Shown here one piece after another: positions 1 through 26,717 of a stretch of 64,000 nucleotides of DNA. A model generated the notes under the pieces. It had not been told where the DNA came from. It saw only the letters and a list, made by a program, of their open reading frames with translations, and did no database searches. Both the position numbers and the translations under genes were made by a program. Every line of letters begins with the position of its first letter. The stretch's first letter is position 1. The stretch comes from Trueperaceae bacterium (lineage in GTDB: Bacteria; Deinococcota; Deinococci; Deinococcales; Trueperaceae): positions 1,344,001-1,408,000 of the forward strand of contig CBDCDZ010000004.1 in the NCBI GenBank assembly GCA_965215565.1, read 5' to 3'.

Positions 1-324
1 GAGGAGGCTCGAGGCGAGCGGCAAGAACGCCCGCCCCGAGGGGCGCGTGAGCCACACACCTAAGGGAATCCCGATGACGAGGATCAGCGCGAGCGCCCAG
101 CCGACGATGACGAGGTGTTGCAAGGTCAGCTCTAAGAGCGTGTTGCGTTCGAAAAGGACGGTGCGCTGCTCGGGAAAGAGCCGCCCTAGCACCGCACCCC
201 ACAGCGCTTGTTGCGCGAACAGCCACAAGAGCGCGGCGAACATCGCGCCCGCCAAGCCTACTTGCAGCCACGCCTTGGCTTTAGGTGAAAGCGACGTAGG
301 CAGGCGTCCGGTCAGGGCGCTCAC
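1..324 (-). CDS. Osmoprotectant ABC transporter permease, YehW/OpuBB-like (partial, runs off window start)
   Basis: Manually translated from GTG at 324, which overlaps the ATPase stop (GTGA): MSALTGRLP...LELTLQHLVIVGWALALILVIGIPLGVWLTRP, a typical ProW/YehW N-terminus. Not in the ORF track because it is truncated. Confidence 0.85.
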   Translation of the reverse strand, partial: MSALTGRLPTSLSPKAKAWLQVGLAGAMFAALLWLFAQQALWGAVLGRLFPEQRTVLFERNTLLELTLQHLVIVGWALALILVIGIPLGVWLTRPSGRAFLPLASSLL

Positions 325-1427: not shown

Positions 1428-1678
1428 CGCGCTCCCCTTTCACCAGCAGAAACCCTCTGGTTATAAGCGCTCTCACTGTACCGCTTAGCCCATGCTGCGG
1501 GATAAAGCCCCGGCAGCCCGATTTTTTGGAACCTAGTTCTTTGGAATTTATCTCCCGCCATGCAAAAACTCTGCAAAGCGAACTGAAAGGTGCAGCTCCT
1601 AGCATACGGTTCGGTTCCATCAAGCGTCCGTTCGTGAAGCTTCAAGGCGTTAGTAGAGAACTGTACGCTTTTGTTCAT
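1424..1678 (-). CDS. Possible 84-aa linker ORF coupled to both neighbours; overlaps a degenerate repeat copy
   Basis: ATGA overlap with the permease stop (1675-1678) and GTGA overlap with the ATPase start (1424-1427); no recognisable motif. Confidence 0.3.
   Translation of the reverse strand: MNKSVQFSTNALKLHERTLDGTEPYARSCTFQFALQSFCMAGDKFQRTRFQKIGLPGLYPAAWAKRYSESAYNQRVSAGERGAR
1444..1520 (-). repeat. Degenerate copy of the TAGCAG...CTGCTA dispersed repeat (right end)
   Basis: agcag-N6-tctggtt-N7-ctctcact has the same spacing as the copy at 53353; the other end is not clearly resolvable. Confidence 0.55.
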
Positions 1679-3081
1679 GACTGAATACCGGGCGAGGTCA
1701 AGAGCGCTCCTACCCCGCGCAAAAGCGCGTCTACAAAGAGCGCCAGCAGGATAATCGGTATCGCGCCTAAGAGGATGAGGTCCGGCACCTGCTGGCTGAT
1801 ACCGCTCTCGATAAAGGTCCCTAAACCGCCCGCGCCGATTAAAAAAGCAACCGTCGCGATGCCGATGGTCAGAACCGCCGACGCCCGGAGCCCCTCGACG
1901 ATGAGCGGCAGTGCTAGGGGCAACTCGACGCGGCGCAGGATCTGCGCCCGGCTCATCCCCATTCCGCGCCCCGCGTCGATGGCGGACTTAGGCACCTCTT
2001 TGATGCCCGTGTAGCAGTTGCGGACGATCGGCAGGAGCGCGTAGAGCGTCAGGGCGATGAGCGCGGGAGCCGTGCCGATGCCGCGTACGCCCAGAGCCGA
2101 GAGCGGCGCGGTGAAGCCGGGCAGCGCGAGTTCGCCGAAGTCCAAGCTAAATACCGCAACGATGAGGTCGTTGAGGAACACGGCGAGAATAACCGTGAGG
2201 AGCGCAAGCGGAACTGTAGCGACAAGCACGACAACGCCTAAGTAGAGATTGGCTACACCCTCCGCGAGCCGCGCCTTTTGAAAGCCCCAGATGAGCGCGG
2301 CGGTCGCGGCGAGCCCTACGAGGATAAAGAGCAGCGCGGCTCCTACGCTCACCCCGTTGCCGAGCCGCGCCAGGGGTCCTAACATCAAACCGAACAGCGC
2401 GAGTGAGGGGAGCGTCTGCAACAGGCTCGCGGTAGGTAACACGACCGCTGCCGCCCGCTCGTTTCGCGCCGCCTGAATCGCGGCGGGCACGCCGATAGCG
2501 GCGGCTAGAAAGACGCTCGTGCCCGAGAGCGCTAAGTGCCGCACCACCTCGGCGGCGAAGTCTTCCCCGCGCACCGCGAACTCGCGGGCGAGACCCAAGT
2601 CGCTGAGCGCCCCTGACGCTATAAGAAGAAGCGCGCCGACGAGCCCTGGCACGACTATCAGGGCACTTTTCCACCTCTTACCGCGCAGTTCACCTAACGC
2701 CCCAAAAATTCCGATGTAGTAAGCGAGCAGCGTGACCCACACGCCGCCACGGGGTGAGACCCGCGCCCTGTCCGCGTTCTCTACCTCAGCGAGCAAGGCT
2801 TGTGTCCCCTGGCTCATGAGGACGATTCCCAAGAGCAACCCCGCCGAAGCGAGCAGACCGAGCACCCAAGGACGCCCTTGAACCTTTGCAAAACTGACCA
2901 GCGCGAGCGCGAGCCAAACGCCGAGCAGCAGGAGGACCCAAACGAGGGGCAACGCAAAGGCGCTGTACGCTTCGCCCTCGACGATGCGGTTCTCTTTGAG
3001 CAGCAGCCAATTCGCCGCGAGCACGCCGAGAACGCCCACGGCGCTCGCGAGCAGCGTTACAGGATTGAGTGAATCACGCAC
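1675..3081 (-). CDS. Osmoprotectant ABC transporter permease, YehY-like
   Basis: Multi-TM protein with QTLPSLALFG and the EAA-type loop AIDAGRGMGMSRAQILRRVELPLA. Confidence 0.9.
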   Translation of the reverse strand: MRDSLNPVTLLASAVGVLGVLAANWLLLKENRIVEGEAYSAFALPLVWVLLLLGVWLALALVSFAKVQGRPWVLGLLASAGLLLGIVLMSQGTQALLAEVENADRARVSPRGGVWVTLLAYYIGIFGALGELRGKRWKSALIVVPGLVGALLLIASGALSDLGLAREFAVRGEDFAAEVVRHLALSGTSVFLAAAIGVPAAIQAARNERAAAVVLPTASLLQTLPSLALFGLMLGPLARLGNGVSVGAALLFILVGLAATAALIWGFQKARLAEGVANLYLGVVVLVATVPLALLTVILAVFLNDLIVAVFSLDFGELALPGFTAPLSALGVRGIGTAPALIALTLYALLPIVRNCYTGIKEVPKSAIDAGRGMGMSRAQILRRVELPLALPLIVEGLRASAVLTIGIATVAFLIGAGGLGTFIESGISQQVPDLILLGAIPIILLALFVDALLRGVGALLTSPGIQS

Positions 3082-3099
3082 AACTCACCTCTTCATTCC

Positions 3100-3130
3100 A
3101 AAAAAGATGAGGACAGGTCAACCTGTCCTC
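3100..3130 (-). terminator. Intra-operon hairpin/terminator after the substrate-binding gene
   Basis: GAGGACAGGT/ACCTGTCCTC inverted repeat followed by a T-tract on the minus strand. Confidence 0.6.
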
Positions 3131-3163
3131 TTGAAGCTCTTTTCAACGTATGAAAGGCGAACC

Positions 3164-4090
3164 TTACTGCAAGAAGCCTTCGGAGGTGAGGTAGTCCTCA
3201 GCCACCTGCGCGGGGTCGAGACCCTCCACCGCTACCTGACCGTTAAGGGTTTGCAGCGTCTCCTCATCGAGCGATTCGAAGACAGGGTTGAGAATTTCCG
3301 CGAGTTCCGGGAACTGGCTCGCCACCTCGCCGCGCACGGTGGGCGCAGGCTGATAGATAGCCACCGCGCTTTGAGGATCGTCTAACGTGGTGAGCCCGAG
3401 CGCCGAAATCGTGCCGTCGGTGCCGTACGCCATCGCCGCGTTGACGCCGTCGGTGCCCTGCGCCGCCGCTGTCTCGGTCTGCGTAGTGTTGCCGCCCGCT
3501 AAGATCACGAGTTGGTTTGACGAGACTTCGAAGCCGTAAGTTTCCTCGAAGGCGGGCAGCGCGTCTTCGCGGTCGACGAACTCCTGGCTCGCGGCGAGCT
3601 TGAATTCGCCGCCATCGTTGATATACGTGGCTAAGTCGCCGAGCGTCTCCAAGCCGTTCTCCTGCGCTAAACTTTCAGGCACGGCAATCGCCCAGGTGTT
3701 GTTCGCGGGCGCTTGCTCCAACCAGGTCACGTTGTTGCGCTCGGCGTCGAGCTGTTTCACGGTCTGGTAGAGTTCTTGGGCGTCCGTCGAAACGCCTTCG
3801 GGCAGTGCCGCGTCCGGGAAAAACGTCAGCGCCGAGCCCGTATACTCGGGGTAGAGGTCGATTTCGCCCGCTAAGAGCGCCTCACGCACCACCGACGTCG
3901 TGCCGAAGCCCGAGCGGTCATTTATAGCGAAGTCGTTCTGCTCCAACATGAGCCGGATGATCTGAGCGAGCACCGAGCCCTCGGTATCGATCTTCGAGCC
4001 GACGGTGAGCGTTCCCTTTTGTGCGAAGCCGAAGCTCGAGCCGAGGCTCACACTAAGGACGACGAATAGGACAAAGGCTAGTCTGCGCAT
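3164..4090 (-). CDS. Osmoprotectant ABC transporter substrate-binding protein (OsmF/YehZ-like)
   Basis: Signal peptide; VGSKIDTEG, DLYPEYTG and ANNTWAIAV motifs; GGAGG RBS. Confidence 0.92.
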   Translation of the reverse strand: MRRLAFVLFVVLSVSLGSSFGFAQKGTLTVGSKIDTEGSVLAQIIRLMLEQNDFAINDRSGFGTTSVVREALLAGEIDLYPEYTGSALTFFPDAALPEGVSTDAQELYQTVKQLDAERNNVTWLEQAPANNTWAIAVPESLAQENGLETLGDLATYINDGGEFKLAASQEFVDREDALPAFEETYGFEVSSNQLVILAGGNTTQTETAAAQGTDGVNAAMAYGTDGTISALGLTTLDDPQSAVAIYQPAPTVRGEVASQFPELAEILNPVFESLDEETLQTLNGQVAVEGLDPAQVAEDYLTSEGFLQ

Positions 4091-4424
4091 GGTTTCCTCC
4101 TACTTGTTCTACTGGTATGTATACGGACGTAATGGACCGTTAGAACACATTCACGCAACCATCACTCAGGTCTAGGCTTACGCTTCACTGAACACGTAGT
4201 AGACAAAACGATGAACGCTATCAATGTGAAAAACTACGCTTTGAAGTAAAGCATACAAAGTCGCGAGGCTCTGTTAAGCGCCCTACCAAAAGTTTGTTCT
4301 GGTTGTCGTAAGAGGTGCGCCGACGCTGCCGCCGCACCTCGCCCGTGCTAAAAGGGGCACTAATAGAAGAGGTGAGGTTAGAACCTCACCCCCCACGCTG
4401 TAGAGACTTTACGCTTCGCGCCTG

Positions 4425-4646
4425 CTAAACTCTCGTTCTCATCTCGCCGAGCGAGACTCCCGTAAGGGCATTGCGCCTCTTTTGCCGCAGCGAATCACAG
4501 GCAGCTTGCCAGTTCGCCTTAGCGCGCCTAAGTTCAGCGCGCGCGTTCGTTACGTTGCGCCCCGTACGCTCCGCCTTGTCTACTCTAAATTGCGCTCTGA
4601 CGCACTGGTCTGCGGCTCGGTCTAATGGGGATGAAAAGAAGATCAT
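4425..4646 (-). CDS. Small basic hypothetical protein (73 aa)
   Basis: AGGAGG RBS 5 nt before ATG 4646; hairpin GGTGAGGT/ACCTCACC downstream at about 4372-4391. Confidence 0.5.
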   Translation of the reverse strand: MIFFSSPLDRAADQCVRAQFRVDKAERTGRNVTNARAELRRAKANWQAACDSLRQKRRNALTGVSLGEMRTRV

Positions 4647-4896
4647 GACAGCCTCCTGCAGCTCTCTATGAGATTTCTCACATCTTAGACCTTCTCGTCT
4701 GCACAAGCAACCGCAAATGCGCCTTATGAAGAAACTGTGAGAGCGCTCCTTAGAAAGCGCTCTCTCGCCGTGCTACACGGCTTTTGAGGAACCACTGAGA
4801 GGACCGCGCCACGGCAAAAGACCTCACGGGGCGGTTTCACATATTCTTTATTTTTTTCTCATAAAAAGCGTCAGCGGTAGAGATTTGCGCGGTCTT

Positions 4897-6888
4897 TTAG
4901 GACGCCTCCGCCGCTGCCGACGCAGGTTGCTCCACCTCTTCCGCGCTCCGTCCGAACGTAAAGAGCACGCCGGCGAGCACGAGTAGCCCCGCGATGAGCA
5001 TCAGCCACCAGGGAGCCCCTAGGCCGACGGGCAAGAGCCCGATGAGCAGACCCACGACGCCCGCTGTGAGCGCGTACGGCAACTGCGTGCGCACGTGGTC
5101 GATGTGGTCACACCCCGACGCCATCGACGAGATGATCGTCGTGTCCGAAATCGGTGAGCAGTGGTCACCCCAAACCGCGCCTGAAAGCACCGAAGCTATT
5201 GAGGCGTAAAGGATAGCGTAGTGCTCGGGCGACGCCATCCCGTTCGCCTGCAAGATGGCCCAGGTCAGCGGCACCGTGAGCGGCACCAAAATGCCCATCG
5301 TTCCCCAACTCGTGCCCGTCGCGAACGCCGTCGCCGCCGACACGACGAAGATGAGCGCGGGCAGGGCGGCGGGCGCTAAGCTCTCGCCCAAGATGGAGAC
5401 GAGATAGTCGCCCGTATGCAGCACGTCCGTCACGCCAGAGAGCGCCCACGCCAAGATTAAGATGATAATCACGAAGAGCATGTTTTTGAGCCCGCCGTAC
5501 CACGCACTGACCGTCTCTTCCAAGGATAGAATCCGCTGCCCCACGCTGAGCAGCGCCGCCGCGAGCACGCCCAAGAGCGACGCCCACACGAGCGCGGTGA
5601 AGGAGTCCGCGCTGCCGATGATGTCTTGTATATTGTCGCCTTCGCCCGTCGCGAAAAGCCCGATGATCGCCACGCCGACGAGCACCACGATGGGAACGAT
5701 TGCGTTGAGCGCACGCTCGGGAACGTCCTCTTTAGGTTCCATCTCGTCGCCGATATCGTCCACCCTCGAGTCTCCGCGCATCACCGAGCCGGTGCGCCGT
5801 GCCCGCCGCTCCGCCTGGAGCATCGGACCGTAGTCGCGCCCGGAGAGCGCCACCATAAAGACGAACAGCACCGCGAGGATGGGATAGAAGCTGTAAGGAA
5901 CCGAGTTGAGGAAGATGGTGTAAGCCGCCATATCGAAGCCCTCGATACTACTCACTGCGTCGCCGATGAGCCCCACTTCGAAACCTATCCAGGTCGTGAT
6001 GAGCCCGATCGTCGCCACCGGAGCCGCCGTCGAGTCCACGATGTAGGCGAGCTTCTCGCGCGAGATTTTAAGCCTGTCGGTCACAGGGCGCATGGTGTTG
6101 CCGACGACGAGCGTGTTGGCGTAGTCGTCGAAGAAGATAGCGACGCCTAGAAAGCTCGTCGCCACCTGACCCCGTTTGGGCGTCGAGGCAAAGCCCGTGA
6201 TGCGGTTCACGACCCCTTTCATGCCCCCGTTGCGCGAGATGATGCCGACCATCCCACCGATCATCAAGGTGAAGAGGATAATCGCCGCGTGCCCGGTGCT
6301 GCCATCAGGCGGAACGAGGGCTTGCAGCACGTAGCGGTTGAGCGTCTCTAAAAGTCCTGTCCACACGCCAGAGAGCGACAAGCCGTGAACCGTCACCGCG
6401 CCCACGAAAATGCCCAAAAAGAGCGCCGGGATCACCTGGCGCGTCACGAGCGCCACCGCGATGGCGATGAGCGGCGGCAAAATCGCGAGCCAGCCGAAGA
6501 TCGCCCTCGAGGACCCCTCCGAAAGCGTCTCCCCGCCCTGAACGAGCCGCATGTCGAAGCTACCTGCTGGAACCTGAATATCCTCTACCGTCGCTTCAAA
6601 CCCTAAGCCGGACTCGCTGAAAGCGTCCGGGGCGATAGAGTAGCGCTGTCCGCCAACCTCAAGCTCGAGGGGTTCCCCCACCGGACCCGCCGCCTCAACC
6701 GTCTGGCTAAAAGGGATACCCGCCAGCGCCACCTCAGGCGCTTCGAAGGAAAAGGACTGCGCGTTTTGAGTTTGTGCGTGAGCAGCACAAAATAAAATAC
6801 TGTATAAAATTAGGACGCCGATAAAACCTATGCGCGAGTCCCGAAATTTGCTGGTACTAGAAAGCCGCCAGAACCAAACCTCTCTCAT
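4897..6888 (-). CDS. NhaC-family Na+/H+ antiporter or amino-acid transporter with an N-terminal soluble extension
   Basis: FFDDYAN, YIVDSTAAP, FATGTSWGT and GDHCSPISDTT motifs; start chosen at ATG 6888 after AAAGGAG. Confidence 0.88.
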   Translation of the reverse strand: MREVWFWRLSSTSKFRDSRIGFIGVLILYSILFCAAHAQTQNAQSFSFEAPEVALAGIPFSQTVEAAGPVGEPLELEVGGQRYSIAPDAFSESGLGFEATVEDIQVPAGSFDMRLVQGGETLSEGSSRAIFGWLAILPPLIAIAVALVTRQVIPALFLGIFVGAVTVHGLSLSGVWTGLLETLNRYVLQALVPPDGSTGHAAIILFTLMIGGMVGIISRNGGMKGVVNRITGFASTPKRGQVATSFLGVAIFFDDYANTLVVGNTMRPVTDRLKISREKLAYIVDSTAAPVATIGLITTWIGFEVGLIGDAVSSIEGFDMAAYTIFLNSVPYSFYPILAVLFVFMVALSGRDYGPMLQAERRARRTGSVMRGDSRVDDIGDEMEPKEDVPERALNAIVPIVVLVGVAIIGLFATGEGDNIQDIIGSADSFTALVWASLLGVLAAALLSVGQRILSLEETVSAWYGGLKNMLFVIIILILAWALSGVTDVLHTGDYLVSILGESLAPAALPALIFVVSAATAFATGTSWGTMGILVPLTVPLTWAILQANGMASPEHYAILYASIASVLSGAVWGDHCSPISDTTIISSMASGCDHIDHVRTQLPYALTAGVVGLLIGLLPVGLGAPWWLMLIAGLLVLAGVLFTFGRSAEEVEQPASAAAEAS

Positions 6889-7047
6889 CGTGGGTCTCCT
6901 TTCGCTCCAAACGCAAGTGTACATCTTTTCGTTAAAGCGGAAGAAGATTCATACTTTGACGGTTCTATGGCGCTGCTTTGTGATGCCGCGAAGAGGTTGG
7001 ACGTTGCGGCTTACGCCTACGTTCGTCGTGGTGATATCGCCTAGGAT

Positions 7048-13914: not shown

Positions 13915-14727
13915 CTAGTTAAACGCGACAGCGTCCTCGTCGTACTCATCTTCATACTCCTCGTACTCGTACGCTTCAGCGAGGGTTTGCTCGCGGGCAA
14001 CCGAGTAGACGAGGAAGCTAAAGCCCGCTTTGGCGAGCCAGTCCGCGAGCATGTAGCCAAACTGCACGCCGACTTCGGTGGAGGAGCCCCCCAGCCCTAA
14101 GAAGGGCACCATGTAGATGACCGGGAAGAAGCCCCACGAGCCCAAGAGCAAGAGCACCGAGTTGGTGACGAGGCGGCTCGCGTGTTCGCTAAGCTCGGCG
14201 AGGGCGTCGTTGAGCACGCCGTAAAGCACCCAGAGGATATAGAGGAAAGGAACCGTGCTGGCGGTGCCCCAAATCACGCGCGTCTGCGTGTCGGTAGAGA
14301 TTTCGCCGGGGTAGCCGAGAGCGATCATAGCCACCGTCGCGACGCTCAAGCGGACGCCTAGCGAGAGCGCCTTGCCGCGAGGAAAGTCGAGCACGTTGAC
14401 GAGCGAGATGAGCAGAAGCGGCACGGTGGGGAGCCAGTAGACGTAGCGGTAGAGCGCGAAAGGTAGGGTGTCCTCAGTTGGAACGTAGAGCCCCTCTTGC
14501 AGCGCGTAGACGCCGCGCCACTGCGTGAAGAGGAAGAGGTAGTGTAGCGCCGACAGCCCGACGATCGTCGCCACCATCCAGAGCGCAGGGCGGTACGCTT
14601 CGTCGATCTTGCGCCGCGACACCACGAAAAAGGCGGCGAGCGAGACCATGAGCAGCACCGTTGCGATAAAAGCAACCACCACGAAGGTGTACTGAGCGGG
14701 CGAGAGGGCACTTAAAAAATTGAGCAT
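13915..14727 (-). CDS. Microbial (type 1) rhodopsin, xanthorhodopsin/Gloeobacter-rhodopsin-like, with an atypical Y-T-S helix-C motif
   Basis: Seven hydrophobic segments; YRYVYWLPTVPLL, MIALGYPGE, WGTASTVPF, WGFFP and ADWLAK (retinal Lys233); AAGGAG RBS before ATG 14727; 270 aa. Confidence 0.92.
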   Translation of the reverse strand: MLNFLSALSPAQYTFVVVAFIATVLLMVSLAAFFVVSRRKIDEAYRPALWMVATIVGLSALHYLFLFTQWRGVYALQEGLYVPTEDTLPFALYRYVYWLPTVPLLLISLVNVLDFPRGKALSLGVRLSVATVAMIALGYPGEISTDTQTRVIWGTASTVPFLYILWVLYGVLNDALAELSEHASRLVTNSVLLLLGSWGFFPVIYMVPFLGLGGSSTEVGVQFGYMLADWLAKAGFSFLVYSVAREQTLAEAYEYEEYEDEYDEDAVAFN

Positions 14728-15164
14728 AGTTCTCCTTATGATTAGACAGCATAGGCACAACGTCAAAAGTTCTTCCGACAGCGCGAGGGCAACTCCAAGA
14801 ACTGTCAGTGACGTATGTATCGTAGGCGAGAGGCTCTTCTCAAGAGGTCAAATTTTTCATCTTTACTCGGTGTTCAGAAAGTTCGCGGGTATAGCGCTCG
14901 GGGACCTGCTCACTTCTCTAGCCAACCTCTCAAAACAGCGTGCAGAAGGGCGTGAAGCGCGTTTTGCGGTCTACGGAACAGGACTAAAACACCGTAGTTT
15001 TTCACGAGCGAGCTATGACTTTTTGCGAAAAAGAGAGAAAAGTCATAGGGGTGCGGAGCGGCTCAACAGGGTTGGCATTTGGGTCTCAAGATTTGAGAAA
15101 CACTCGGGCTAGCTTCACCGTTCCTTCAGGCGCGTTCATGAAAGGGGGTCTCGCAAACTCGAGA

Positions 15165-17520: not shown

Positions 17521-17610
17521 TCATCCCATAGGTTAAGTCCCTGCGTCACGCCCCTTTGCTGGTCAGACGCTGAACTTGGGCTTTTCACTTAGGTGGGAGC
17601 GTCGTGGAAG

Positions 17611-18039
17611 ATGCCGTTTGGCGAATTTCAATACTCGGTAGACGACAAAGGTCGGGTCATCGTCCCACCTTCCTTTCGCGACTTCGTTACCGACGGCATG
17701 ATCGTAACAAGAGGCATGGAAGGTTGTTTGTACGTCTTCCCGCTCACCAAATGGAACGCGATCGAGAGCGAGCTGAGCAACCTCTCCATCACCGACGCGA
17801 AATCTCGGGGCTTCGTGCGCTTTTTCTATTCGGGCGCGTCCAAAGCCAAAATCGACTCGGCGGGTCGCATCACGATTCCCGCCACGCTCCGCGCTTTCGC
17901 CTCCTTGGAGAACAACGTCCGCATCGCGGGCTTCCCGAACCGCTTAGAGATTTGGGACGAAGCGAAGTGGGAAGAGAACATCAGCGCCGTGCAGCACCAA
18001 CCCGACGCCCCGGAAGCGCTGCTGGAACTCGTCGGATGA
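17611..18039 (+). CDS. mraZ: Division/cell wall cluster transcriptional repressor MraZ
   Basis: MPFGEFQYSVDDKGRVIVP, TRGMEGCL, IDSAGRITIP, RLEIWD. Confidence 0.95.
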   Translation: MPFGEFQYSVDDKGRVIVPPSFRDFVTDGMIVTRGMEGCLYVFPLTKWNAIESELSNLSITDAKSRGFVRFFYSGASKAKIDSAGRITIPATLRAFASLENNVRIAGFPNRLEIWDEAKWEENISAVQHQPDAPEALLELVG

Positions 18040-18989
18040 GTCGTCCCGAGCAGCCCCATATCCCTGTCATGTTACGCGAATGTTTAGAGGGTTTAGATAT
18101 TCGCCAGGGCCACGTCTATATCGACGGAACCTTCGGTGCGGGCGGGCACAGCCAGGCGATCTTAGACGCGGGCGGCTCGGTTTTGGGCATCGACCGCGAT
18201 GAGAAAGCCCTGGCCTTCGCAGACAAACTCGACATCCCCGAGGGACAAATTTTTACCTTCGCACAGGGAAACTTTCGCCACTTAGACGAACACGCAAAAG
18301 AGGCCGACCTCTTTCCGGCTGCCGGTATCCTGCTTGACTTAGGCGTGTCGTCCATGCAACTCGATGAGGCGGAGCGCGGCTTCGCCTTTCGGCAGGCTGG
18401 ACCGCTCGACATGAGGATGGACGCTGGAGACAACAGCGAGAGCGAGTCGGCAGCGGACGTGGTCAACACCTACACGCAAGACGAGTTAGCCGCCATCATC
18501 TTCAAATACGGCGAGGAGCGTCACAGCCGCCGCATCGCCAGGCGCATCGTCGAGGAGCGGGCGACCTCTCCGATTGAGACGACGGAGGCGTTAGCTGACG
18601 TTATTCAGCGCGCGTACCCCGGCGGTTACAGACGCGACCATCCGGCGCGGCGCACCTTTCAAGCGCTACGCATCTTTGTCAACGACGAACTCGGCGCGTT
18701 GGAGGACGCCCTTCAAGCCGCCGAGCGGACGCTTCGCGTAGGTGGGCGGCTGGTGGTGCTCTCCTATCATTCTTTAGAAGACCGCATCGTCAAGCACTTC
18801 GGCAGGGGGAGCGGCGTGCTTACACCGCTGACCAAGCGTCCATTGACGGCGAGCGACGAGGAGATAGAGGTTAATCCCCGGGCTCGCAGCGCCAAGCTCC
18901 GCGTCGCTGTTCGCAACCAAGATTCGACTGAAGACTCAAACGACTCAATTGATAAAATCCTCTCCCCTGCCCCTTCGGAGGCGTTATGA
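18036..18989 (+). CDS. rsmH: 16S rRNA m4C1402 methyltransferase RsmH
   Basis: HIPVML, DGTFGAGGH, DLGVSSMQLD, PLDMRM, SYHSLED, NPRARSAKLR; start at the ATGA overlap. Confidence 0.95.
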   Translation: MSRPEQPHIPVMLRECLEGLDIRQGHVYIDGTFGAGGHSQAILDAGGSVLGIDRDEKALAFADKLDIPEGQIFTFAQGNFRHLDEHAKEADLFPAAGILLDLGVSSMQLDEAERGFAFRQAGPLDMRMDAGDNSESESAADVVNTYTQDELAAIIFKYGEERHSRRIARRIVEERATSPIETTEALADVIQRAYPGGYRRDHPARRTFQALRIFVNDELGALEDALQAAERTLRVGGRLVVLSYHSLEDRIVKHFGRGSGVLTPLTKRPLTASDEEIEVNPRARSAKLRVAVRNQDSTEDSNDSIDKILSPAPSEAL

Positions 18990-19306
18990 CCAGACGGAGC
19001 CAAAGCCTACTCACGCTCTACCTCGCGCTCATCCTCGCGCTCGCCGCGTTAGGCGCGCGCAACCAGGGCCGCCACCGCTACCACTTCTCCCTCTTGGAGA
19101 CCAAACGCGCGCTCCAGTACGAGTTGAGCGATTTGCGCAGCGAAGCCGCGCAGGTCAAAGGTCCTCTCGCGGTGCGCCGCTGGGCGCTCTCGCACGGCAT
19201 GATTTCGTCCCCCGAGGGAACGGAAGCCACCGAGATCGCGCCCACCTCCGGCCCTGAACCCGAAACTCCCGAAGTAGGCCTGGAGGTCCGTACGATATGG
19301 CGGTAA
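18986..19306 (+). CDS. ftsL: FtsL-like cell division protein
   Basis: One TM segment plus coiled coil, between rsmH and the PBP gene. Confidence 0.65.
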   Translation: MTRRSQSLLTLYLALILALAALGARNQGRHRYHFSLLETKRALQYELSDLRSEAAQVKGPLAVRRWALSHGMISSPEGTEATEIAPTSGPEPETPEVGLEVRTIWR

Positions 19307-20802
19307 GAGATACGAGGGCGCGGCTCTCAGCGAAGAGCAAGTCAGTGAAGCGCGGGCCTAAAAACACACACAAGAAAAAAGTCGCCGCTTACAAGACGCC
19401 TGAGAGTGAACCTGCGCCGCAGCTCCGCCTCCACAAGCGGGCGCTCTTTCTCGTCCTCCTCGCGCTGCCCCTCCTAGCGGCGCTCGGCGGCTTCGTCCGC
19501 TTGCAAGCCAAAGCGCCTGACCTGCCCGCCGCGCTCACTGAGGAGCCGAGGCGCGGGCTCATCCAAACGAGAGACGGTACTATCCTCGCCGAAGGTGCTG
19601 TCGAGCACCGCCGCTACCCGGAGGGGCGGCTCGCCGCGCATGTGGTTGGTTTTAGCGGCGCGGTGCAGCCCGACGGGAGGTTCGGTCTAGAGGGGCTCGA
19701 GTACGCCCTAGATAGGCGCTTGCAAGAGGGCGAAGACGTGACGCTGACCCTAGACCCGAGCCTCCAAGCCATCGCCCAAGCCGAGCTGCGCAAAGCTGCG
19801 CAGACCTTTGAGGCGGAGAACGGCGCGGTGGTGATGCTCGAGGCGAACACGGGGCGCGTCTTAGCTGCCGCCTCCTACCCCGAATTCGACCCCAAGAGAC
19901 AAGGACAGGTTGAAGAGCGCAGCATCATCAGCAACCGCGCATTTTTGCAGCAAGTCGAGCCCGGCTCCACTATGAAGCCTTTTGTGGTGGCTGCGCTCAT
20001 GGAAGCGGGGCGGCTCTCGCCAGACGAAACGCTGGAGGTCGGGCCTTACATGCGCGTCGGCACCCAGGACTTCCGCGACGTATCTTCGCACGACCCGGTC
20101 TTGAGCATCCCCGACATCTTACGAGTCTCAAGTAACGTCGGCATGATCAAGCTGGGCGAGCGCTTCTCGTCCGAAGAACTGTCCTCCTGGATGTATCATT
20201 TCGGCTTTGGGCGCGACGTCGGCTTGAACGCCGCATATACCCGCGACGGACGTATCAATCCCTGGCAGAACTGGGTGCCCCAAGACCACGCCTCCGCGAC
20301 CATCGGGCAGAGCGTCTCGACGACGGCGCTCCAACTCGCCGCCGCCTACAGCATCTTCGCGAACGACGGGGTTTACGTGCCGCCGCAACTTCTAGAAGAT
20401 GAGGTCACCTTCGAAGAGGTCAGAGGCGAACCCGTCCGCACAGGCGCGGTGCGGGTGCTCTCCTCGAGTACAGCGCAAAGTGTCAAGGACATGCTCGTCT
20501 ACACGGTGGAGAATAGCGGGCTCAGCGTCGCCAAGATTCCCGGCGTCAAAGTTGCGGGCAAGTCGGGGACGGCGGACGTCTTTGACAACGAAAAGGGCGA
20601 ATATATCAAAGCGGGCACGCTCCTCTTTGCAGGGATGTTTCCGGCGGACGCTCCCCGCGTCACGGCGGTGGTGTACCTGCAAAAACCCAAGGAAGAAAGC
20701 TTGAGCACCTACGTCGCCGCGCCCGTCTTTCGGGCGATCGGCAGCGAGACCGTCGCCCTCTGGGGGCTCCCGCCCAAACCCGGTCAGGTCGCGGGGCAAT
20801 AG
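19297..20802 (+). CDS. ftsI: Class B penicillin-binding protein (FtsI)
   Basis: EPGSTMK (SxxK), SSN, KSG motifs; N-terminal TM. Confidence 0.9.
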   Translation: MAVRDTRARLSAKSKSVKRGPKNTHKKKVAAYKTPESEPAPQLRLHKRALFLVLLALPLLAALGGFVRLQAKAPDLPAALTEEPRRGLIQTRDGTILAEGAVEHRRYPEGRLAAHVVGFSGAVQPDGRFGLEGLEYALDRRLQEGEDVTLTLDPSLQAIAQAELRKAAQTFEAENGAVVMLEANTGRVLAAASYPEFDPKRQGQVEERSIISNRAFLQQVEPGSTMKPFVVAALMEAGRLSPDETLEVGPYMRVGTQDFRDVSSHDPVLSIPDILRVSSNVGMIKLGERFSSEELSSWMYHFGFGRDVGLNAAYTRDGRINPWQNWVPQDHASATIGQSVSTTALQLAAAYSIFANDGVYVPPQLLEDEVTFEEVRGEPVRTGAVRVLSSSTAQSVKDMLVYTVENSGLSVAKIPGVKVAGKSGTADVFDNEKGEYIKAGTLLFAGMFPADAPRVTAVVYLQKPKEESLSTYVAAPVFRAIGSETVALWGLPPKPGQVAGQ

Positions 20803-20818
20803 AGGTATAGTGTCCTCT

Positions 20819-20875
20819 ATGAGCCAGATGGTGACGCAGCATACGAAAGACGAGCGGGGGAACGCTGCGCTGTGA
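20819..20875 (+). CDS. Possible leaderless 18-aa uORF coupled to murF
   Basis: TATAGT 7 nt before ATG 20819; TGA (20873-20875) overlaps the murF GTG (20872). Confidence 0.35.
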   Translation: MSQMVTQHTKDERGNAAL

Positions 20876-22200
20876 CGCCATTGTCACCTCAATTTGTCGC
20901 TGCTACGGCGGGCGTGTCGCTCGAGTCTAGGTCCCTACAAGACGCGAGCGGCGTGAGCTTTCACTCGGCGCGTGTTCATCCCGGCGACGCCTTTTTCGCG
21001 CTCCCCGGAGCGGCGGGACACGGACTCGCGTACGCGGACCAAGCGTTAGCTGCAGGCGCAGCTTTCATCGTTTCGGACAGGCCGCATCCGCGCGGGCTTC
21101 GGGTTGAGAACCCAGCGCAAGTTCTTCTCGACTTGGGCAAACATGCGAGAGGCCAACTCAGAGGTCCTGTCGTTGGCGTGACCGGTTCAGCAGGTAAAAC
21201 GAGCACCAAAGCGATGCTCGCAGCGGCGCTGGGCGCGGCGGCGAGTCCGGGCAACTTCAACACGCCGCTCGCGCTGGCGCAGGTCCTCATAGGCGCTTGG
21301 TTGCAGAGAAAAACGTCGGAAAACGAGAGGTTGGTCCTCGAGCTAGGCATCGACTTCGTCGGCGAGATGGACCAGCTCGTCGCGTTGGCTAAACCCACCC
21401 ACGCCGTTCTCACCCTGATTGCGGAGAGCCACCTGAGCGCCCTGGGCAACGTCGAGACCGTCGCGAGAGAAAAGCTCAAGCTCGTGGACGCGGCCGAACA
21501 CGCCTTCGTCAGCGAGCAAGCTGCACCCTTTACGAACGAGGATCAGCGTGAGAAAAGCACCGTCTACGGGCTCGGCGCAGAGGCAGACTTTTCAGGTGTT
21601 GTGACCGATGTATCGCCAATAGGTCAACGGCTGCAAGTCGGCGGCGTCACGTTTACGCTTCCCTACTTGGGCGACGCGATGGCGCGAAACGCGGTGGCAG
21701 CGGTGGGCGTGGCGCGGCATTTCGGGCTCGGTTTGGACGAAGTCGCTAAGAGGTTGAGCGAGGTGAGGCTCGAGCCCGGACGCTTAGAGGTCAAACGGAC
21801 CGGCAACCTCACCCTTATCGATGACTCGTATAACAGCAACCCCGCGTCGGCGGCGGTGGCTCTGGGCGTTCTGCGCCAATTCCCGAAACCTCACACCGCT
21901 GTTTTGGGCGACATGTTAGAACTCGGCGTGGTGTCAGAAGTGCGTCACCGTGACCTAGGTAAGCAGACGTTGGATTTGGACTACCTCTTTGCCGTGGGCG
22001 ACGAAGCGCGGTTCGTTGCGGCAGAAAATCCGCGCGCAGTTCACCTCGCTTCGGAGGACCTCTTAGACGTTATAGATGCGCTCCCCACTCACGGAACGGT
22101 GCTCGTCAAGGGCTCGAGGGGAACGCGGCTCGAGCGGCTCGTCCAGGCGCTACTCGAAGCGAACGCTAAAATCTCCCAACAAGAGGTGAGCGCGCCGTGA
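20872..22200 (+). CDS. murF: UDP-MurNAc-tripeptide--D-Ala-D-Ala ligase
   Basis: GVTGSAGKTSTK, GNFNT, LELG, DDSYNSNP, LGDMLELG, VKGSRG. Confidence 0.93.
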   Translation: MTPLSPQFVAATAGVSLESRSLQDASGVSFHSARVHPGDAFFALPGAAGHGLAYADQALAAGAAFIVSDRPHPRGLRVENPAQVLLDLGKHARGQLRGPVVGVTGSAGKTSTKAMLAAALGAAASPGNFNTPLALAQVLIGAWLQRKTSENERLVLELGIDFVGEMDQLVALAKPTHAVLTLIAESHLSALGNVETVAREKLKLVDAAEHAFVSEQAAPFTNEDQREKSTVYGLGAEADFSGVVTDVSPIGQRLQVGGVTFTLPYLGDAMARNAVAAVGVARHFGLGLDEVAKRLSEVRLEPGRLEVKRTGNLTLIDDSYNSNPASAAVALGVLRQFPKPHTAVLGDMLELGVVSEVRHRDLGKQTLDLDYLFAVGDEARFVAAENPRAVHLASEDLLDVIDALPTHGTVLVKGSRGTRLERLVQALLEANAKISQQEVSAP

Positions 22201-23120
22201 TCGTTCTCTGGTCCGCCCTCTCATCGCTCTTGCTCGTGGGCGTCTTTATTCAGCTTGCGGGGCGCTACGGCTGGGGCAAAGGGATACGGCGCGACGGACC
22301 CCCAAGCCACCTCAAAAAGGAGGGCACGCCGACGATGGGCGGCGCAGCCTTTCTGCTCGCCGCGCTCTTCACGTGGCTCCTCGCCGGTGAGCCGAGCTTC
22401 GACGGGCTCGCCGTCGTCATGCTGACCTTCGCCGCCGCCCTCTTGGGGCTCTACGATGACCTCTTGGCGCTCCGCCGCAAACGCCGCGCCCTCATCCATG
22501 AACAGGGTGGTGAGGACGACACAACGGGGCTCTTGGCGCGTTACCGCTTGCTCGTCCAGGGCGCGCTCGCCTTCGCCTTTTCTCTCTACGCCGTGCGGGG
22601 CGGCTACACGCTCTTCGATATTCAAGTGTTTGACCTCTTGGCCTTCACCTTTATTATCATGGGCACCATCAACGCCGTGAACTTCAGCGACGGGCTGGAC
22701 GGGCTCGCGGGCGGCATGACGGCGCTTATCTTGCTGCCGTTTAGCGGGGTCAGCTTTATCGCGGCTTTGATCGGTTCACTTTTAGGGTTTCTCTGGTATA
22801 ACGGCTCGCCTGCGCGAGTTTTCATGGGCGGCGTCGGCTCGGAGGGGCTCGGCGCGGCGGTGGCGGGCGTCGCCATCTTGTCCGGTTGGGTGTGGTGGCT
22901 GCCGCTCATCGCCCTCATCCCTGTGCTAGAGGTCTTATCCGTTATCATCCAAGTGACGTACTTTCGGGCGACGGGCGGCAAGAGGTTTTTCAAGATGAGC
23001 CCGCTGCACCATCACTTCGAACTCTCCGGGTGGTCGGAGACGCAAGTGGTCACGCGCTTTTGGCTCGTGACGGCGGTGTGCGTGGCGGTGGCGTGGAGCG
23101 CGCAAAGAGGTCTTTCATGA
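22197..23120 (+). CDS. mraY: Phospho-N-acetylmuramoyl-pentapeptide transferase
   Basis: KEGTPTMGG, NAVNFSDGLDGLA, MSPLHHHFE. Confidence 0.95.
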   Translation: MIVLWSALSSLLLVGVFIQLAGRYGWGKGIRRDGPPSHLKKEGTPTMGGAAFLLAALFTWLLAGEPSFDGLAVVMLTFAAALLGLYDDLLALRRKRRALIHEQGGEDDTTGLLARYRLLVQGALAFAFSLYAVRGGYTLFDIQVFDLLAFTFIIMGTINAVNFSDGLDGLAGGMTALILLPFSGVSFIAALIGSLLGFLWYNGSPARVFMGGVGSEGLGAAVAGVAILSGWVWWLPLIALIPVLEVLSVIIQVTYFRATGGKRFFKMSPLHHHFELSGWSETQVVTRFWLVTAVCVAVAWSAQRGLS

Positions 23121-24499
23121 GAGCGCTTGTGTACGGTTTAGGGCGCAGCGGCGTCGCTGTAGGTAAGCTCTTGCGCTCGCAAGGTCATGAGGTCGTCTAC
23201 TTCGATGAAAACGTTGAGGCCTCGCCCGAATTGGACGCGCTCGGCTGCGAACGGGCGAACACACCTCTTGAGCACGCGAACATAGATGTCTGTATCGCGG
23301 CTCCGGGCGTCCCCTATGACCATCCCGACTTAGAGGCGTTGAGGGACCGCGGCGTTGACACCATCGGCGAAGTCGAGTGGGTGTATAGAACGGTAGACGC
23401 AGAAATCATCGGCATCACGGGTACGGCGGGTAAAGGCACCGTCACGCGCTGGACGAGCGACGTGCTGCGCTCAGCGGGGCTGGACGCGCCCGCCGGGGGC
23501 AACATCGACCCGGCGCTCGCAGAGGTAGCGGGGGCAGGCAAGACGCTCGTCGTGGAGATGTCGTCGTTTATGCTCGAGCGCACGCCCACCCTTAAACCTC
23601 TTATCGCTGCCGCCCTCAATCTAGATATAGACCACTTAGACCGCCACGGCAGCGTGGCAGCCTATCACGCAGCTAAGCGCAATCTTATTCGTAACGTGGA
23701 CGAAAGCTGTACCTTTATCTACAACGCCGACGACGCAACCTTGCGCGACTGGGCAACCGAGGCGCAGCAGAAGAACGCTGAGGTTCGCTTCTTTAGCACA
23801 ACCCAACCTGCGAACGCTTATCTGAACGACGATTCTATCTTTTTAGACGGAGACCCGCTTATGCCGCTCAGTGATTTACAGATTCAAGGCGCGCACCATC
23901 GCGCCAACGCGCTCGCCGTGACCCTCATCTGCCAGGCGAAGGGCTTGTCACGAGAGGAGATTCGAAGGGGTTTAGCCGAGTTCACGGGCGTCCCCGGACC
24001 CTACAGCTTGGTTAAGACCATAGGTAAGGTTCGCTTCATCGAGGATTCGATTGCGACACGCTCGCTCTCGGTTCGGGCTGCGCTGGAAGCCACACCTGCG
24101 CCTATCGTGTGGCTCGCAGGTGGACAGGATAAGGGCGCGGACTTCACCGCTTTAGAACCGCTTATCCGAGCTAAGGTGGCACTTTTTATCGGCATCGGCG
24201 TATCGGGTGAGCGGTTCGCTGAGGCTGTTTCGCCCTGGACGCAGACGGTTGTGGTTGAGGTTGAGGATGGTCAGGCAGCCATGCACCAAGCGGCGCAGCA
24301 AGCCGCAAAGTTTTTACAGGATTTCCCGCAAGGCGGTACGGTTTTACTCGCGCCTCTCGCCGCGTCGTTTGATCAATTTAAGGATTACAAGGAGAGGGCT
24401 CGAGCCTTTAGGGACGCGGTTCACGCTTTGGAAAACTCGTTGGAATTCCAAACCACGCCACAGGAAGAACGAGGGGAGGTCTCGTGGACCCGCTCTTAG
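23117..24499 (+). CDS. murD: UDP-MurNAc-L-Ala--D-glutamate ligase
   Basis: GLGRSG, GITGTAGKGT, EMSSF, DHLDRH, GGQDKG, ASFDQF; start at the ATGA overlap. Confidence 0.92.
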   Translation: MRALVYGLGRSGVAVGKLLRSQGHEVVYFDENVEASPELDALGCERANTPLEHANIDVCIAAPGVPYDHPDLEALRDRGVDTIGEVEWVYRTVDAEIIGITGTAGKGTVTRWTSDVLRSAGLDAPAGGNIDPALAEVAGAGKTLVVEMSSFMLERTPTLKPLIAAALNLDIDHLDRHGSVAAYHAAKRNLIRNVDESCTFIYNADDATLRDWATEAQQKNAEVRFFSTTQPANAYLNDDSIFLDGDPLMPLSDLQIQGAHHRANALAVTLICQAKGLSREEIRRGLAEFTGVPGPYSLVKTIGKVRFIEDSIATRSLSVRAALEATPAPIVWLAGGQDKGADFTALEPLIRAKVALFIGIGVSGERFAEAVSPWTQTVVVEVEDGQAAMHQAAQQAAKFLQDFPQGGTVLLAPLAASFDQFKDYKERARAFRDAVHALENSLEFQTTPQEERGEVSWTRS

Positions 24500-25560
24500 T
24501 CTTTACGCAGCTCATCTTGGGCACGTTGGGCGTGCTGGGCGTCGCCACGAGCGCGCCCGAGCTGTGGCCCGCCCACCTCTTGCGCGTGCTCGCAGGGCTC
24601 GCCCTCACCTTTTTAGCCTCGCGCGTCTCGCCGCAGCGCGTGGTGCGCCTCAGCCCTTACGCCTACGTGGGCGTGCTCGTTCTCTTGGCGGCGGTCCTCA
24701 TCGTCGGCATCTCGCCCGAAGGCAGCGACGCAAAGCGCTGGCTCGACTTGGGCGTGTTCACACTGCAACCTTCCGAGCTGATGAAGGTGACCGTCATCGC
24801 CTACCTGACGGCTTTTTTTTACAACCACCTGGGTGACTGGCAGATTTGGCGGCCCATGTTCGTCATCGGTTTGGCGGCGGGGCTCATCGTGGCGGAGCCG
24901 GACGTGAGCACGGCGGGCTTTATCTTTCTCTTGGCGTTCGCCATCATGTTAGCGGCGGGCACGACTGTCGTGCGGCTGCTGAGTATTACGACAGCGGCGG
25001 CTATTGTCGCCGTCCTTATCGCAGGACCGTATCTCAGCGAATATACCTATATCGGTGACCGCATCAGGGGCTTTGAAGACCTCTGGGGAGCGCAAGAACA
25101 GGCGCAGACCGAAAGCTATCAGGCGGTGCAGGCGCAACGCACCCTCGTTCGCGCCGGGCTTTTCGGCGTCGGACCGGGCGAGATCATCCGCGTACCGGAG
25201 GCGGACACGGACATGATCGCGATTTCGGTGGCGCACGCGCTCGGGCTTTTAGGTGTAGCGACGCTCTTCGCGCTCTACATCTTTATTGCGTGGCGGGGGC
25301 TGAGCATCGCCTCGAGCCTCGCCGGACCCGGCTCGCTCTTAGCGGCGGGGGCGACGGCCTACATCTGCGGTCAAGCGGCGCTGAATTTACTTGTCGCTTC
25401 AGGTCTCGTGCCCGTAACAGGGATTCCCTTGCCGTTTGTTTCTTACGGGCAAAACAGTCTCTTCTCGGTGGCGATTGCGATGGGGTTCATTCACAGCGCC
25501 TACCGCATTTCTCAGAATCCTGAACTGGCAGCACAAAACGCTAAGGAGAAAACCGCGTGA
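24484..25560 (+). CDS. ftsW: SEDS peptidoglycan polymerase FtsW
   Basis: AKRWL, QPSELMK, EPD, PVTGIPLPFVSYG. Confidence 0.92.
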   Translation: MDPLLVFTQLILGTLGVLGVATSAPELWPAHLLRVLAGLALTFLASRVSPQRVVRLSPYAYVGVLVLLAAVLIVGISPEGSDAKRWLDLGVFTLQPSELMKVTVIAYLTAFFYNHLGDWQIWRPMFVIGLAAGLIVAEPDVSTAGFIFLLAFAIMLAAGTTVVRLLSITTAAAIVAVLIAGPYLSEYTYIGDRIRGFEDLWGAQEQAQTESYQAVQAQRTLVRAGLFGVGPGEIIRVPEADTDMIAISVAHALGLLGVATLFALYIFIAWRGLSIASSLAGPGSLLAAGATAYICGQAALNLLVASGLVPVTGIPLPFVSYGQNSLFSVAIAMGFIHSAYRISQNPELAAQNAKEKTA

Positions 25561-26717
25561 CTCGCGTTCTCCTCGCGACAGGCGGCACGGGTGGGCACAT
25601 CTACCCGGCGCTCGCCACCGCAGAGGAACTCGCGGCGCGCGGCTACGAAGTTGCCTTCATCGGACAGCGCGGCGGCATGGAGGCGCGGCTCGTGCCGGAA
25701 ACAGGCTTCGACTTTCACGGCGTCCGGGCAGGCAAGTGGCACCGGGGCAGCCCGGACCCGCGTCAGGCGGTTCAGGCGGGGCTGGGGCTATGGGACGCGG
25801 TCAAAGTCGTGCGCGAACTCAAACCGCTCATCGTCGTCGGCTTCGGCGGCTTCGCGAGTTTTCCGGGGTTGGCAGCCGCCACAGCGCTGCGCGTCCCGGT
25901 TGCGCTGCACGAGCAAAACGCGCTTCCCGGCAAGGTCACGCGCTGGTTTGCTCACCGCGCCGCCTTTGTCGCTACCGCCAACGAAGAGGTCGCGGCACAT
26001 TTACCCCTTCACCGGAGCAAACTCGTTCAGGTTGGCGTACCCGTGCGGGAGGCGCGCGTCGATAAACGCGGCGCGCGGCGTCAGCTCGGCTTCGCAGAAA
26101 CGGACGTGCTCACGCTGGTGATGGGCGGAAGTCAGGGGTCTGCCTTTCTCAACGAACACGCGCCGAAAGCGTTCGCGGGCCTCTCTCGGTCCTTACAAGG
26201 ACACTCTCTCAGCGTCTTACACAGCAGCGGCGAGCGGCATCTGAAAGGGGTCAAGGCCCTAGCCGAAGGGGTACCTAACTACCGCGTGGACAGCTTTGTA
26301 GACGCCGTGGTAGCCTGGTCTGCGGCGGATTTAGCGATCACCAGAGCGGGCAACGGCACGCTTGCGGAGGCGGCCTTTCACGGGGTACCTCTCGTGATGG
26401 TCCCGCTCGCCTCTTCGGCCGAAAACCATCAACTGCATAACGCGAGGGCGGTAGCAGCCGCTGGCGCAGGGCGAGTCGTGGAAGAGCGTGACGCAGGGCA
26501 GCTCGCGGCGGCGTGGCAGGCTCTCCTAGTTCCTGCGCCGCGCCGAGCTGCGGCGAAGGCGGCGCGGCAGCGTTCGCCCGAAGGTGCGGCGGCGCGGCTC
26601 GCGCGGCTTATCGACGAATCCGTGAACGCCTCAACGAACACTCGGTCACCAGACAAAGATTTTCACGCGGCGCACGCCTCTCAGCGGGGTGCAAAGCGTG
26701 TTCGGGAGCAACGATGA
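25557..26717 (+). CDS. murG: Undecaprenyl-PP-MurNAc-pentapeptide GlcNAc transferase
   Basis: GGTGGHIYP, GFGGF, HEQN, GGSQG, HQLHNA. Confidence 0.95.
   Translation: MTRVLLATGGTGGHIYPALATAEELAARGYEVAFIGQRGGMEARLVPETGFDFHGVRAGKWHRGSPDPRQAVQAGLGLWDAVKVVRELKPLIVVGFGGFASFPGLAAATALRVPVALHEQNALPGKVTRWFAHRAAFVATANEEVAAHLPLHRSKLVQVGVPVREARVDKRGARRQLGFAETDVLTLVMGGSQGSAFLNEHAPKAFAGLSRSLQGHSLSVLHSSGERHLKGVKALAEGVPNYRVDSFVDAVVAWSAADLAITRAGNGTLAEAAFHGVPLVMVPLASSAENHQLHNARAVAAAGAGRVVEERDAGQLAAAWQALLVPAPRRAAAKAARQRSPEGAAARLARLIDESVNASTNTRSPDKDFHAAHASQRGAKRVREQR

Follow-up and report, generated by a model that had tools for sequence, protein, structure and literature searches.

The motif of helix C sorts microbial rhodopsins by function, and every new conserved motif tested to date has turned out to go with a new function or mechanism. 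A Tyr residue at the first position of this motif, where bacteriorhodopsin (BR) has Asp85, is already on record: in a literature search for Tyr-replaced rhodopsins, the paper on the Proteo-SRs, sensory rhodopsins with a Y(T/C)M motif (Saliminasab et al. 2023, PMC10519204), was the sole rhodopsin precedent found. As described there, the Proteo-SRs absorb near 580 nm, show neither Schiff-base deprotonation nor proton transport, display a strong Y90F phenotype, and bind an Htr-like transducer encoded next door, where Htr, CheA, CheW and CheY genes adjoin. Here we report on a rhodopsin gene in a 64,000-nucleotide stretch of a Trueperaceae bacterium genome (assembly GCA_965215565.1, contig CBDCDZ010000004.1, positions 1,344,001 to 1,408,000; this whole stretch is called the window), whose product, P0001, has Tyr97, Thr101 and Ser108 in place of the D-T-E motif of the xanthorhodopsin (XR) family of outward proton pumps. 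The Y-T-S clade to which it belongs is real, conserved and uncharacterised.

P0001 is a type 1 microbial rhodopsin of the XR family, encoded on the minus strand by an open reading frame that runs from an ATG at 14727 to a stop codon at 13915-13917. It matched the Pfam family Bac_rhodopsin (PF01036) at 4e-31 and 108.7 bits (cut-off 24.6), and its AlphaFold model (pLDDT 92.1, pTM 0.87) has seven helices. When this model was compared with known structures by Foldseek, rhodopsins were matched with a probability of 1.00, the XR-family structures giving TM values of 0.90-0.94 at 40-46% identity, and its superposition on psXR and Gloeobacter rhodopsin (GR) gave a TM of 0.94 with an rmsd of 1.5-1.6 Å. 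Sequence matches to solved structures ranged from 5e-60 to 9e-47, led by psXR (9wfa, 5e-60) and followed by GR (6nwd, 4.5e-56), xanthorhodopsin (3ddl, 1e-52) and Thermus rhodopsin (5azd, 4e-49). Zero models of NCBIfam matched P0001, and the ESM Atlas returned nothing beyond generic XR and bacteriorhodopsin clusters. Retinal binding is predicted from the Schiff-base Lys233 and the conserved pocket residues Trp98, Trp198 and Pro202 (the BR criteria K216, W86, W182 and P186), all of which are present in 25/25 clusters of the clade.

Pairwise alignments to 9wfa, 6nwd, 3ddl and 5azd place the pump sequence YRYVDWLLTVPLLLVE opposite YRYVYWLPTVPLLLIS of P0001, in which Asp is replaced by Tyr97, Leu by Pro100 and Glu by Ser108, with Thr101 retained. 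Residues were then counted over the best 120 of 2,670 homologues, of which 25 clusters were Y-T-S-like (23 YTS, 1 LTS and 1 YTA) and 95 were D-T-E relatives. Position 97 is Tyr in 24/25 clade clusters, Leu in one and Asp in none, whereas all 95 D-T-E relatives have Asp; likewise, position 108 is Ser in 24/25 clusters, Ala in one and Glu in none, against Glu in 95/95 relatives. Thr101 and His62 were found throughout both groups (25/25 and 95/95). Pro100 is specific to the clade (25/25), the relatives having Leu (91), Val (3) or Phe (1), and position 201 is Phe in every clade cluster and Tyr in every relative. On helix G, the clade has Asp229 in 24/25 clusters and Trp230 and Lys233 in all 25, while position 230 of the D-T-E group is Val, Ile or Leu. 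The residues invariant in 25/25 clade clusters are His62, Tyr63, Arg94, Trp98, Thr101, Leu105, Trp198, Pro202 and Lys233.

Altogether 13 positions are near-invariant in the Y-T-S clade and rare or absent among the 95 relatives, namely Val55 to Ile, Ala59 to Ser, Arg65 to Phe, an inserted Leu92, Asp97 to Tyr, Leu100 to Pro, Glu108 to Ser, Ala131 to Thr, Tyr201 to Phe, Val230 to Trp, Lys247 to Gln, Ala at position 24, and Tyr255 in the C-terminal tail. Both carboxylates of the proton relay in pumps are thus lost, and their loss is fixed across the clade together with Pro100, Phe201, Trp230, Phe65 and Gln247. Over the four genes read, the Tyr97 codon is TAC, TAT, TAC and TAC, and Ser108 is TCG in 4/4; since TCG lies at least two base changes away from any Glu codon, the motif is not the outcome of a single point mutation. 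An initial annotation made from the window sequence had read Tyr97/Thr101/Ser108 in an XR-like rhodopsin, along with Phe201 and intact Arg94, His62, Asp229 and Lys233, and had taken the simultaneous changes for real divergence rather than a single-base GAC to TAC change. The reading frame, the alignments to the four XR-family structures and the Ser108 codon bear this out, apart from its "extra" Pro100, which in fact substitutes Leu; the true one-residue insertion is Leu92, just before YRY. The changes at positions 55, 59, 65, 131, 230 and 247 come on top of those that it had noted. Coordinates of the gene and its motif codons are collected in Table 1.

Table 1. Positions in the window of the Y-T-S rhodopsin gene, its putative ribosome-binding site and its motif codons
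Feature	Coordinates	Strand	Basis or remark
Y-T-S rhodopsin coding sequence (P0001, 270 aa + stop)	13915..14727	-	open reading frame and translation
Shine-Dalgarno-like AAGGAGA	14731..14737	-	3 nt 5' of ATG; sequence reading
His62 codon (helix-B His, retained next to Tyr97)	14542..14544	-	
Tyr97 codon (TAC; BR Asp85 = primary proton acceptor/counterion)	14437..14439	-	sequence, alignments
Pro100 codon (BR Phe88 position; clade-specific Leu to Pro, one residue before Thr101)	14428..14430	-	
Thr101 codon (BR Thr89 position)	14425..14427	-	
Ser108 codon (TCG; cytoplasmic proton donor site, BR Asp96, XR-family Glu)	14404..14406	-	
Gly154-Phe161 codons (GTASTVPF; helix-E carotenoid 'locked' motif with fenestration Gly)	14245..14268	-	GR alignment
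Phe201 codon (BR Tyr185 position)	14125..14127	-	
Asp229-Trp230-Leu-Ala-Lys233 codons (remaining carboxylate counterion, BR Asp212; Trp230; Schiff-base Lys)	14029..14043	-	

A search with a clade profile ranked the same 25 clusters first (358-486 bits), the next match scoring 294 bits, and of the 49 proteins new in this search 48 were DTE and 1 was DTQ. Sixteen additional cluster members were 14 YTS, 1 LTS and 1 partial; with member counts summed, the 25 clusters comprise 56 sequences. The motif persists down to 45% identity and the reading frame is intact in 25/25 clusters, while the nearest D-T-E proteins are at most 53% identical; the close homologues are not D-T-E. The clade is rare; against its 25 clusters, the profile search returned more than 1,700 that are XR-like. 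In a tree of 88 rows (a quick IQ-TREE run with SH-aLRT support only, rooted on NDQ and NTQ rows as the outgroup), the 25 Y-T-S clusters formed one clade among the D-T-E XR-like rows with an SH-aLRT support of 100, on a stem 0.88 changes per column long, and the support was still 99 once 12 trait columns had been removed. Two subclades were resolved: A holds P0001 and its relatives, and B, represented here by three short contigs, is known from metagenomes only and was absent from a sample of 301 genomes of Deinococcota.

The gene is under purifying selection and is neither a sequencing error nor a decaying copy. The window gene and two orthologues, at 86-89% protein identity, gave dN/dS ratios of 0.102, 0.107 and 0.130 by the Nei-Gojobori method, and in the same pair of genomes the D-T-E paralog gave 0.027. 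Contigs from two runs of one sample span the Tyr97 codon at 14437-14439, and no other letter at this codon stood among the 40 differences listed of 72; the sample is possibly the assembly's own source, and conservation across species is the stronger check on the codon. Both properties that the initial annotation had proposed to check, a Y-T-S motif kept within one clade and purifying selection on it, were thus found, and its view that P0001 is not a standard outward H+ pump but a member of a diverged subfamily agrees with the monophyly of the clade, the selection on the gene and the presence of a D-T-E paralog in the genome.

Some sequence features of the family were noted alongside. In each of the two runs, one contig leaves out 94 bases of the rhodopsin gene at window positions 14289-14384, a length that is not a multiple of three; the match has 90% likeness in a metagenome with many strain-level differences, and the skip may represent a relative or an assembly artefact. 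The C-terminal tail of subclade A (residues 252-266, window 13950-13994; YEYEEYEDEYDED) is strongly acidic and Tyr-rich, and its Tyr255, untypical of D-T-E relatives, occurs in 22/25 clade clusters. P0008/P0272, a sister lineage of the Trueperaceae Y-T-S group, has the motif L-T-S with Leu97, and the site of BR Asp212 is occupied by Thr (ATWVGK). As read from their sequences, these proteins have no carboxylate counterion whatsoever, and they may either need a bound anion or hold their Schiff base unprotonated; with Leu97 and Thr229, they show the function of the clade to be independent of proton transfer to a counterion. Other XR-like cluster representatives without the acceptor Asp were P0124, P0139, P0192 and P0157, with the motifs VTE, HTQ, STQ and STE.

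Y-T-S genes are confined to a small part of the Deinococcota sample. Rhodopsin matches were obtained in 85 of the 301 genomes and a Y-T-S gene in only three, all of one genus: the genome of the window (G000) and two others (G148 and G206). Of 27 other best-matching loci, 26 were DTE and one, with an internal stop, gave no motif. Each of these three genomes carries a D-T-E XR as well, which is intact in G000 and G148 and present as a three-frame copy in G206. The G000 paralog (G000:C4:1878709-1879386, minus strand; L003 1420-2280, minus strand) is a 286-aa open reading frame, 46% identical to P0001 and 97% identical to its G148 orthologue. The G206 paralog (L069, G206:C2:1071900-1073300) lies in three frames, which may reflect frameshifts or assembly errors. 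G000 also encodes a blh-type retinal synthase.

P0001 may use a carotenoid antenna, as the residues that hold the carotenoid in GR are kept. These were given as G178, T179, S181, T182, F185, S221, W222, P226 and I227 in the description consulted (PMC9151804). In a gap-free alignment block, in which the GR number equals the P0001 number plus 24, they correspond to G154, T155, S157, T158, F161, S197, W198 and P202, all identical, and to V203, which is changed from I227. Of the 25 clade clusters, 18 keep the fenestration Gly154, the other 7 having Phe or Leu there.

We propose that P0001 is a non-pumping photoreceptor with a Tyr97/Asp229 counterion and a slow or M-less photocycle, possibly antenna-assisted, a reading whose chances we judge to be evenly balanced. 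An XR-type outward proton pump gene would have been duplicated and one copy remodelled into this photoreceptor, in which Tyr97 and Asp229 would form a Tyr/Asp counterion. In BR, bonding between Tyr185 and Asp212 is established. The Tyr97 hydroxyl would take over the hydrogen bond to Asp229 that is given by the helix-F Tyr in pumps, which would explain the coupled change of Tyr201 to Phe; the pairing of Asp to Tyr97 with Tyr to Phe201 suggests that the hydroxyl donor to Asp229 has moved from helix F to helix C. A further BR bond, between Tyr57 and Asp212, is stated in the Proteo-SR paper (PMC10519204), section 3.1 of which also describes the helix-B His as pairing with the Asp acceptor in PR/XR-type pumps; in P0001, His62 would bond Tyr97 instead of Asp. 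With the helix-C acceptor and the cytoplasmic donor both gone, illumination probably leaves the Schiff base protonated or sets off only a slow cycle. There would be zero net proton movement, and a long-lived conformational state would carry the signal, as has been measured in the unrelated Proteo-SRs. The initial annotation had listed an inward pump, an anion transporter, a channel and a sensor as possible functions; the divergence that it proposed stands, and its list is narrowed towards the sensor by the Tyr precedent of the Proteo-SRs.

A fuller version of this proposal, possible but distinctly doubtful, would make P0001 the first sensory or regulatory rhodopsin of the XR family and the first photosensor to keep a carotenoid antenna, with a Tyr97/His62/Asp229 triad replacing Asp/His/Asp, a novel kind of signalling partner, and a carboxylate-free variant in P0008. 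Such a partner would be new among rhodopsins, given that neither Htr nor ASRT nor a fused domain accompanies the gene.

Several observations weigh against the photoreceptor proposal. For the Y-T-S gene, dN/dS is roughly fourfold its value in the pump paralog, and the Tyr97-Asp229-His62 geometry is one that we infer from the sequence. The analogy to the Proteo-SRs is convergent and not homologous, their His being shifted by one position and their donor site being Met in the published description. Donor-less DTG/DTS rhodopsins that pump have been described (PMC8927995), so that Ser108 alone does not exclude pumping. No transducer (Htr/Che) gene adjoins the rhodopsin gene at the window locus or on the subclade B contigs, and the methyl-accepting chemotaxis protein (MCP) genes of G000 lie 2.5 Mb away, MCPs being present in 25/121 genomes of the family, most of them without a Y-T-S rhodopsin. 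An ASRT-family gene is found in 2/3 Y-T-S genomes (none in G206, which is 97% complete) and in 11/118 others. The clade-profile search at E <= 1e-20 found no longer or fused signalling form, which is weak evidence.

These searches for a partner neither identify nor exclude one. ASRT was considered as a transducer; a PF07100 gene is present in G000 (G000:C4:144343-144693, plus strand; L059 1486-1863; 7e-56), 1.2 Mb from the rhodopsin gene and directly downstream of a CYP152-type fatty-acid peroxygenase (P450) gene, but the candidate fails on both co-occurrence and adjacency, PF07100 being found in 13/121 genomes at the level of the family Trueperaceae, including G000 and G148. Transducers of the Htr type were likewise set aside: the two MCP genes are far off, have long N-terminal regions before HAMP, and are not specific to a sensor role. 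They lie in a Pil-Chp-like chemosensory cluster (L070 3174-14122; G000:C4, about 3929200-3940100) that contains a single-domain receiver, CheW, the two MCPs (one with a dCache_1 match), a 1,099-aa CheA with several Hpt domains and one receiver, a DUF4388 protein and a response regulator. The taxis machinery in G000 permits a sensor role.

It is rather unlikely, in our estimate, that P0001 is instead a new type of light-driven ion transporter, either an inward H+ pump with Asp229 as its single counterion or an anion pump lined by Tyr97, Thr101 and Arg94. Schizorhodopsins, with an aromatic Phe at the Asp85 position, pump H+ inward and chloride pumps carry an uncharged residue there, as described in PMC13739731, but the Glu of the schizorhodopsin motif (FSE) is Ser in the Y-T-S clade, and the known chloride pumps of that description have a small Thr or Asn at this site and not a bulky Tyr. 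The proton-release side of P0001 is charge-poor, as Phe replaces Arg65 and the NDAYRY loop has lost its Asp, which would suit a transporter, as would P0008/P0272, in which a protonated Schiff base would need a bound anion; the invariant columns, however, hold no clade-conserved carboxylate or His in the cytoplasmic half. The gene is solitary and without a transducer, like pump genes, though its neighbours give no hint of ion specificity.

A retained outward H+ pump would have to use another acceptor, either Asp229 or a Tyr97 tyrosinate stabilised by His62 and Arg94, and would work without a donor like the DTG/DTS rhodopsins of PMC8927995; we hold this to be improbable. Arg94, His62, Tyr63, Asp229, Lys233 and the entire retinal pocket are retained, and 18/25 clusters keep the antenna site of energy-harvesting XRs, yet Asp and Glu in 95/95 D-T-E relatives indicate that pump function strongly constrains both residues, and the one characterised rhodopsin with Tyr for Asp neither forms M nor pumps, as described. 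The host, moreover, is already equipped with a canonical pump, itself more tightly constrained, and the long stem (0.88) with its 13 coupled changes points to a change of function. That the gene is a relic, a duplicated pump gene adrift, or that its motif codon is a sequencing or assembly error, is barely credible. GAC to TAC is one base and the dN/dS lies above that of the pump paralog, but the frame is intact in 25 clusters, the motif is kept to 45% identity at a dN/dS of 0.10-0.13, no Glu codon can be reached from the Ser codon in fewer than two base changes, a further twelve positions are fixed across the clade, and the 40 differences listed, of 72, for the contigs from the two runs include none at the motif codon. 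What probability remains falls to functions outside these four readings.

Around the rhodopsin gene, a divergent PnrA/Bmp-like lipoprotein gene lies upstream in all three Y-T-S genomes and an M20 dipeptidase gene downstream in two of the three. AAGGAGAA and the ATG are invariant across the three aligned orthologous upstream regions. A promoter scan at the gene gave one promoter-like site against 0.6 expected, its -10 element not being conserved, and Rfam gave 0 matches at E <= 1 around the gene. In the otherwise diverged spacer, two short blocks, ATGAAAAATTTGACC and GTCACTGACAGTT (window 14800-14860, minus strand), are conserved over the three orthologous loci and could be promoter or operator elements. 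Next to the subclade B genes (L005, L007) lie a CYP107-like P450 gene and TPR/lipoprotein genes. This P450 was considered as a link to carotenoids and rejected; it resembles the PksS/CYP107 type, and no match was named carotenoid hydroxylase. Elsewhere the window encodes, over 321-6924 and 17604-28087, an ABC transporter for glycine betaine (an ATPase with CBS, a permease and OpuAC), a 675-aa Na+/H+ antiporter family protein and a cell-division and wall cluster (MraW, PBP, Mur ligases, MraY, FtsW and MurG).

A literature search, outside which subscription journals and supplements lay, returned no paper linking a Y-T-S/YTS motif with rhodopsins, and the main text of the XR phylogeny papers examined is silent on any such clade. 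With a Y-T-S clade in the XR family, the Tyr/Asp counterion would have been invented a second time, independently, which would offer a natural test of whether the counterion alone turns a pump into a sensor. Only a few changes separate the clade from well-studied pumps whose structures are solved (GR, XR and psXR), so that back-mutation experiments are straightforward. Should the carotenoid site be functional, the clade would represent antenna-assisted light sensing, and a red-shifted, non-pumping, slow-cycling XR scaffold could interest tool builders. Being so rare, the clade probably carries little ecological weight.

Among known systems, the pumps of the XR family (psXR, GR, Salinibacter xanthorhodopsin, Thermus rhodopsin and Kin4B8) have the same fold, and the Y-T-S clade nests in the XR-like tree. 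P0001 has His62, Tyr63, Arg94, Trp98, Thr101, the GYPGE motif, Asp229, Lys233 and the GR carotenoid-site residues in common with them. In contrast, it has Y-T-S for D-T-E, Pro100, Phe201, Trp230, Phe65, Gln247 and one inserted residue before YRY, and the acceptor and donor that define these pumps are absent. Anabaena sensory rhodopsin (ASR) has a D-T-S motif, whose first residue is Asp, and a Pro at the site of BR Asp212. It is like P0001 in the Thr and Ser at motif positions 2 and 3, and an ASRT-family gene is present in G000, but P0001 has Tyr97 and Asp229, and the ASRT gene is neither adjacent nor consistently co-occurring.

Schizorhodopsins, inward H+ pumps with an FSE motif, share with P0001 an aromatic uncharged residue at the Asp85 site, a single helix-G carboxylate counterion and the lack of a proton-release group, but have Phe/Ser/Glu where P0001 has Tyr/Thr/Ser; they are a distant family, compared here by its description (PMC13739731). 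The same description gives DSA/DTL/DTS with Pro at the Asp212 position for xenorhodopsins and TSA/TSD or NTQ for chloride pumps, in agreement with the background on the Phe of schizorhodopsins and on chloride-pump motifs from which the initial annotation had argued. Chloride pumps have Thr or Asn at the Asp85 position and P0001 has Tyr97, which sets it apart from them.

The best functional analogy is offered by the Proteo-SRs, in which the Schiff base is not deprotonated and protons are not transported, but the Y-T-S clade is not Proteo-SR. As far as the published description goes (PMC10519204), both have Tyr for the helix-C Asp, have lost the carboxylic donor, and keep the equivalents of Arg82, Trp86, Asp212 and Lys216. 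The donor site, however, is Met in Proteo-SR and Ser in the Y-T-S clade, and Proteo-SR is without the PR-type His, a His replacing BR Tyr57, whereas P0001 keeps both His62 and Tyr63. Proteo-SR genes stand beside Htr/Che genes, while the Y-T-S gene does not, the MCP/Che cluster of its genome being 2.5 Mb off. By its description, Proteo-SR is PR/ESR-like and 24% identical to XR, and the 40-46% identity of P0001 to XR-family structures argues against membership. With the Proteo-SR features (lineage, Met, His shift and Htr/Che neighbours) absent from the Y-T-S clade, the Tyr counterion seems to have arisen twice.

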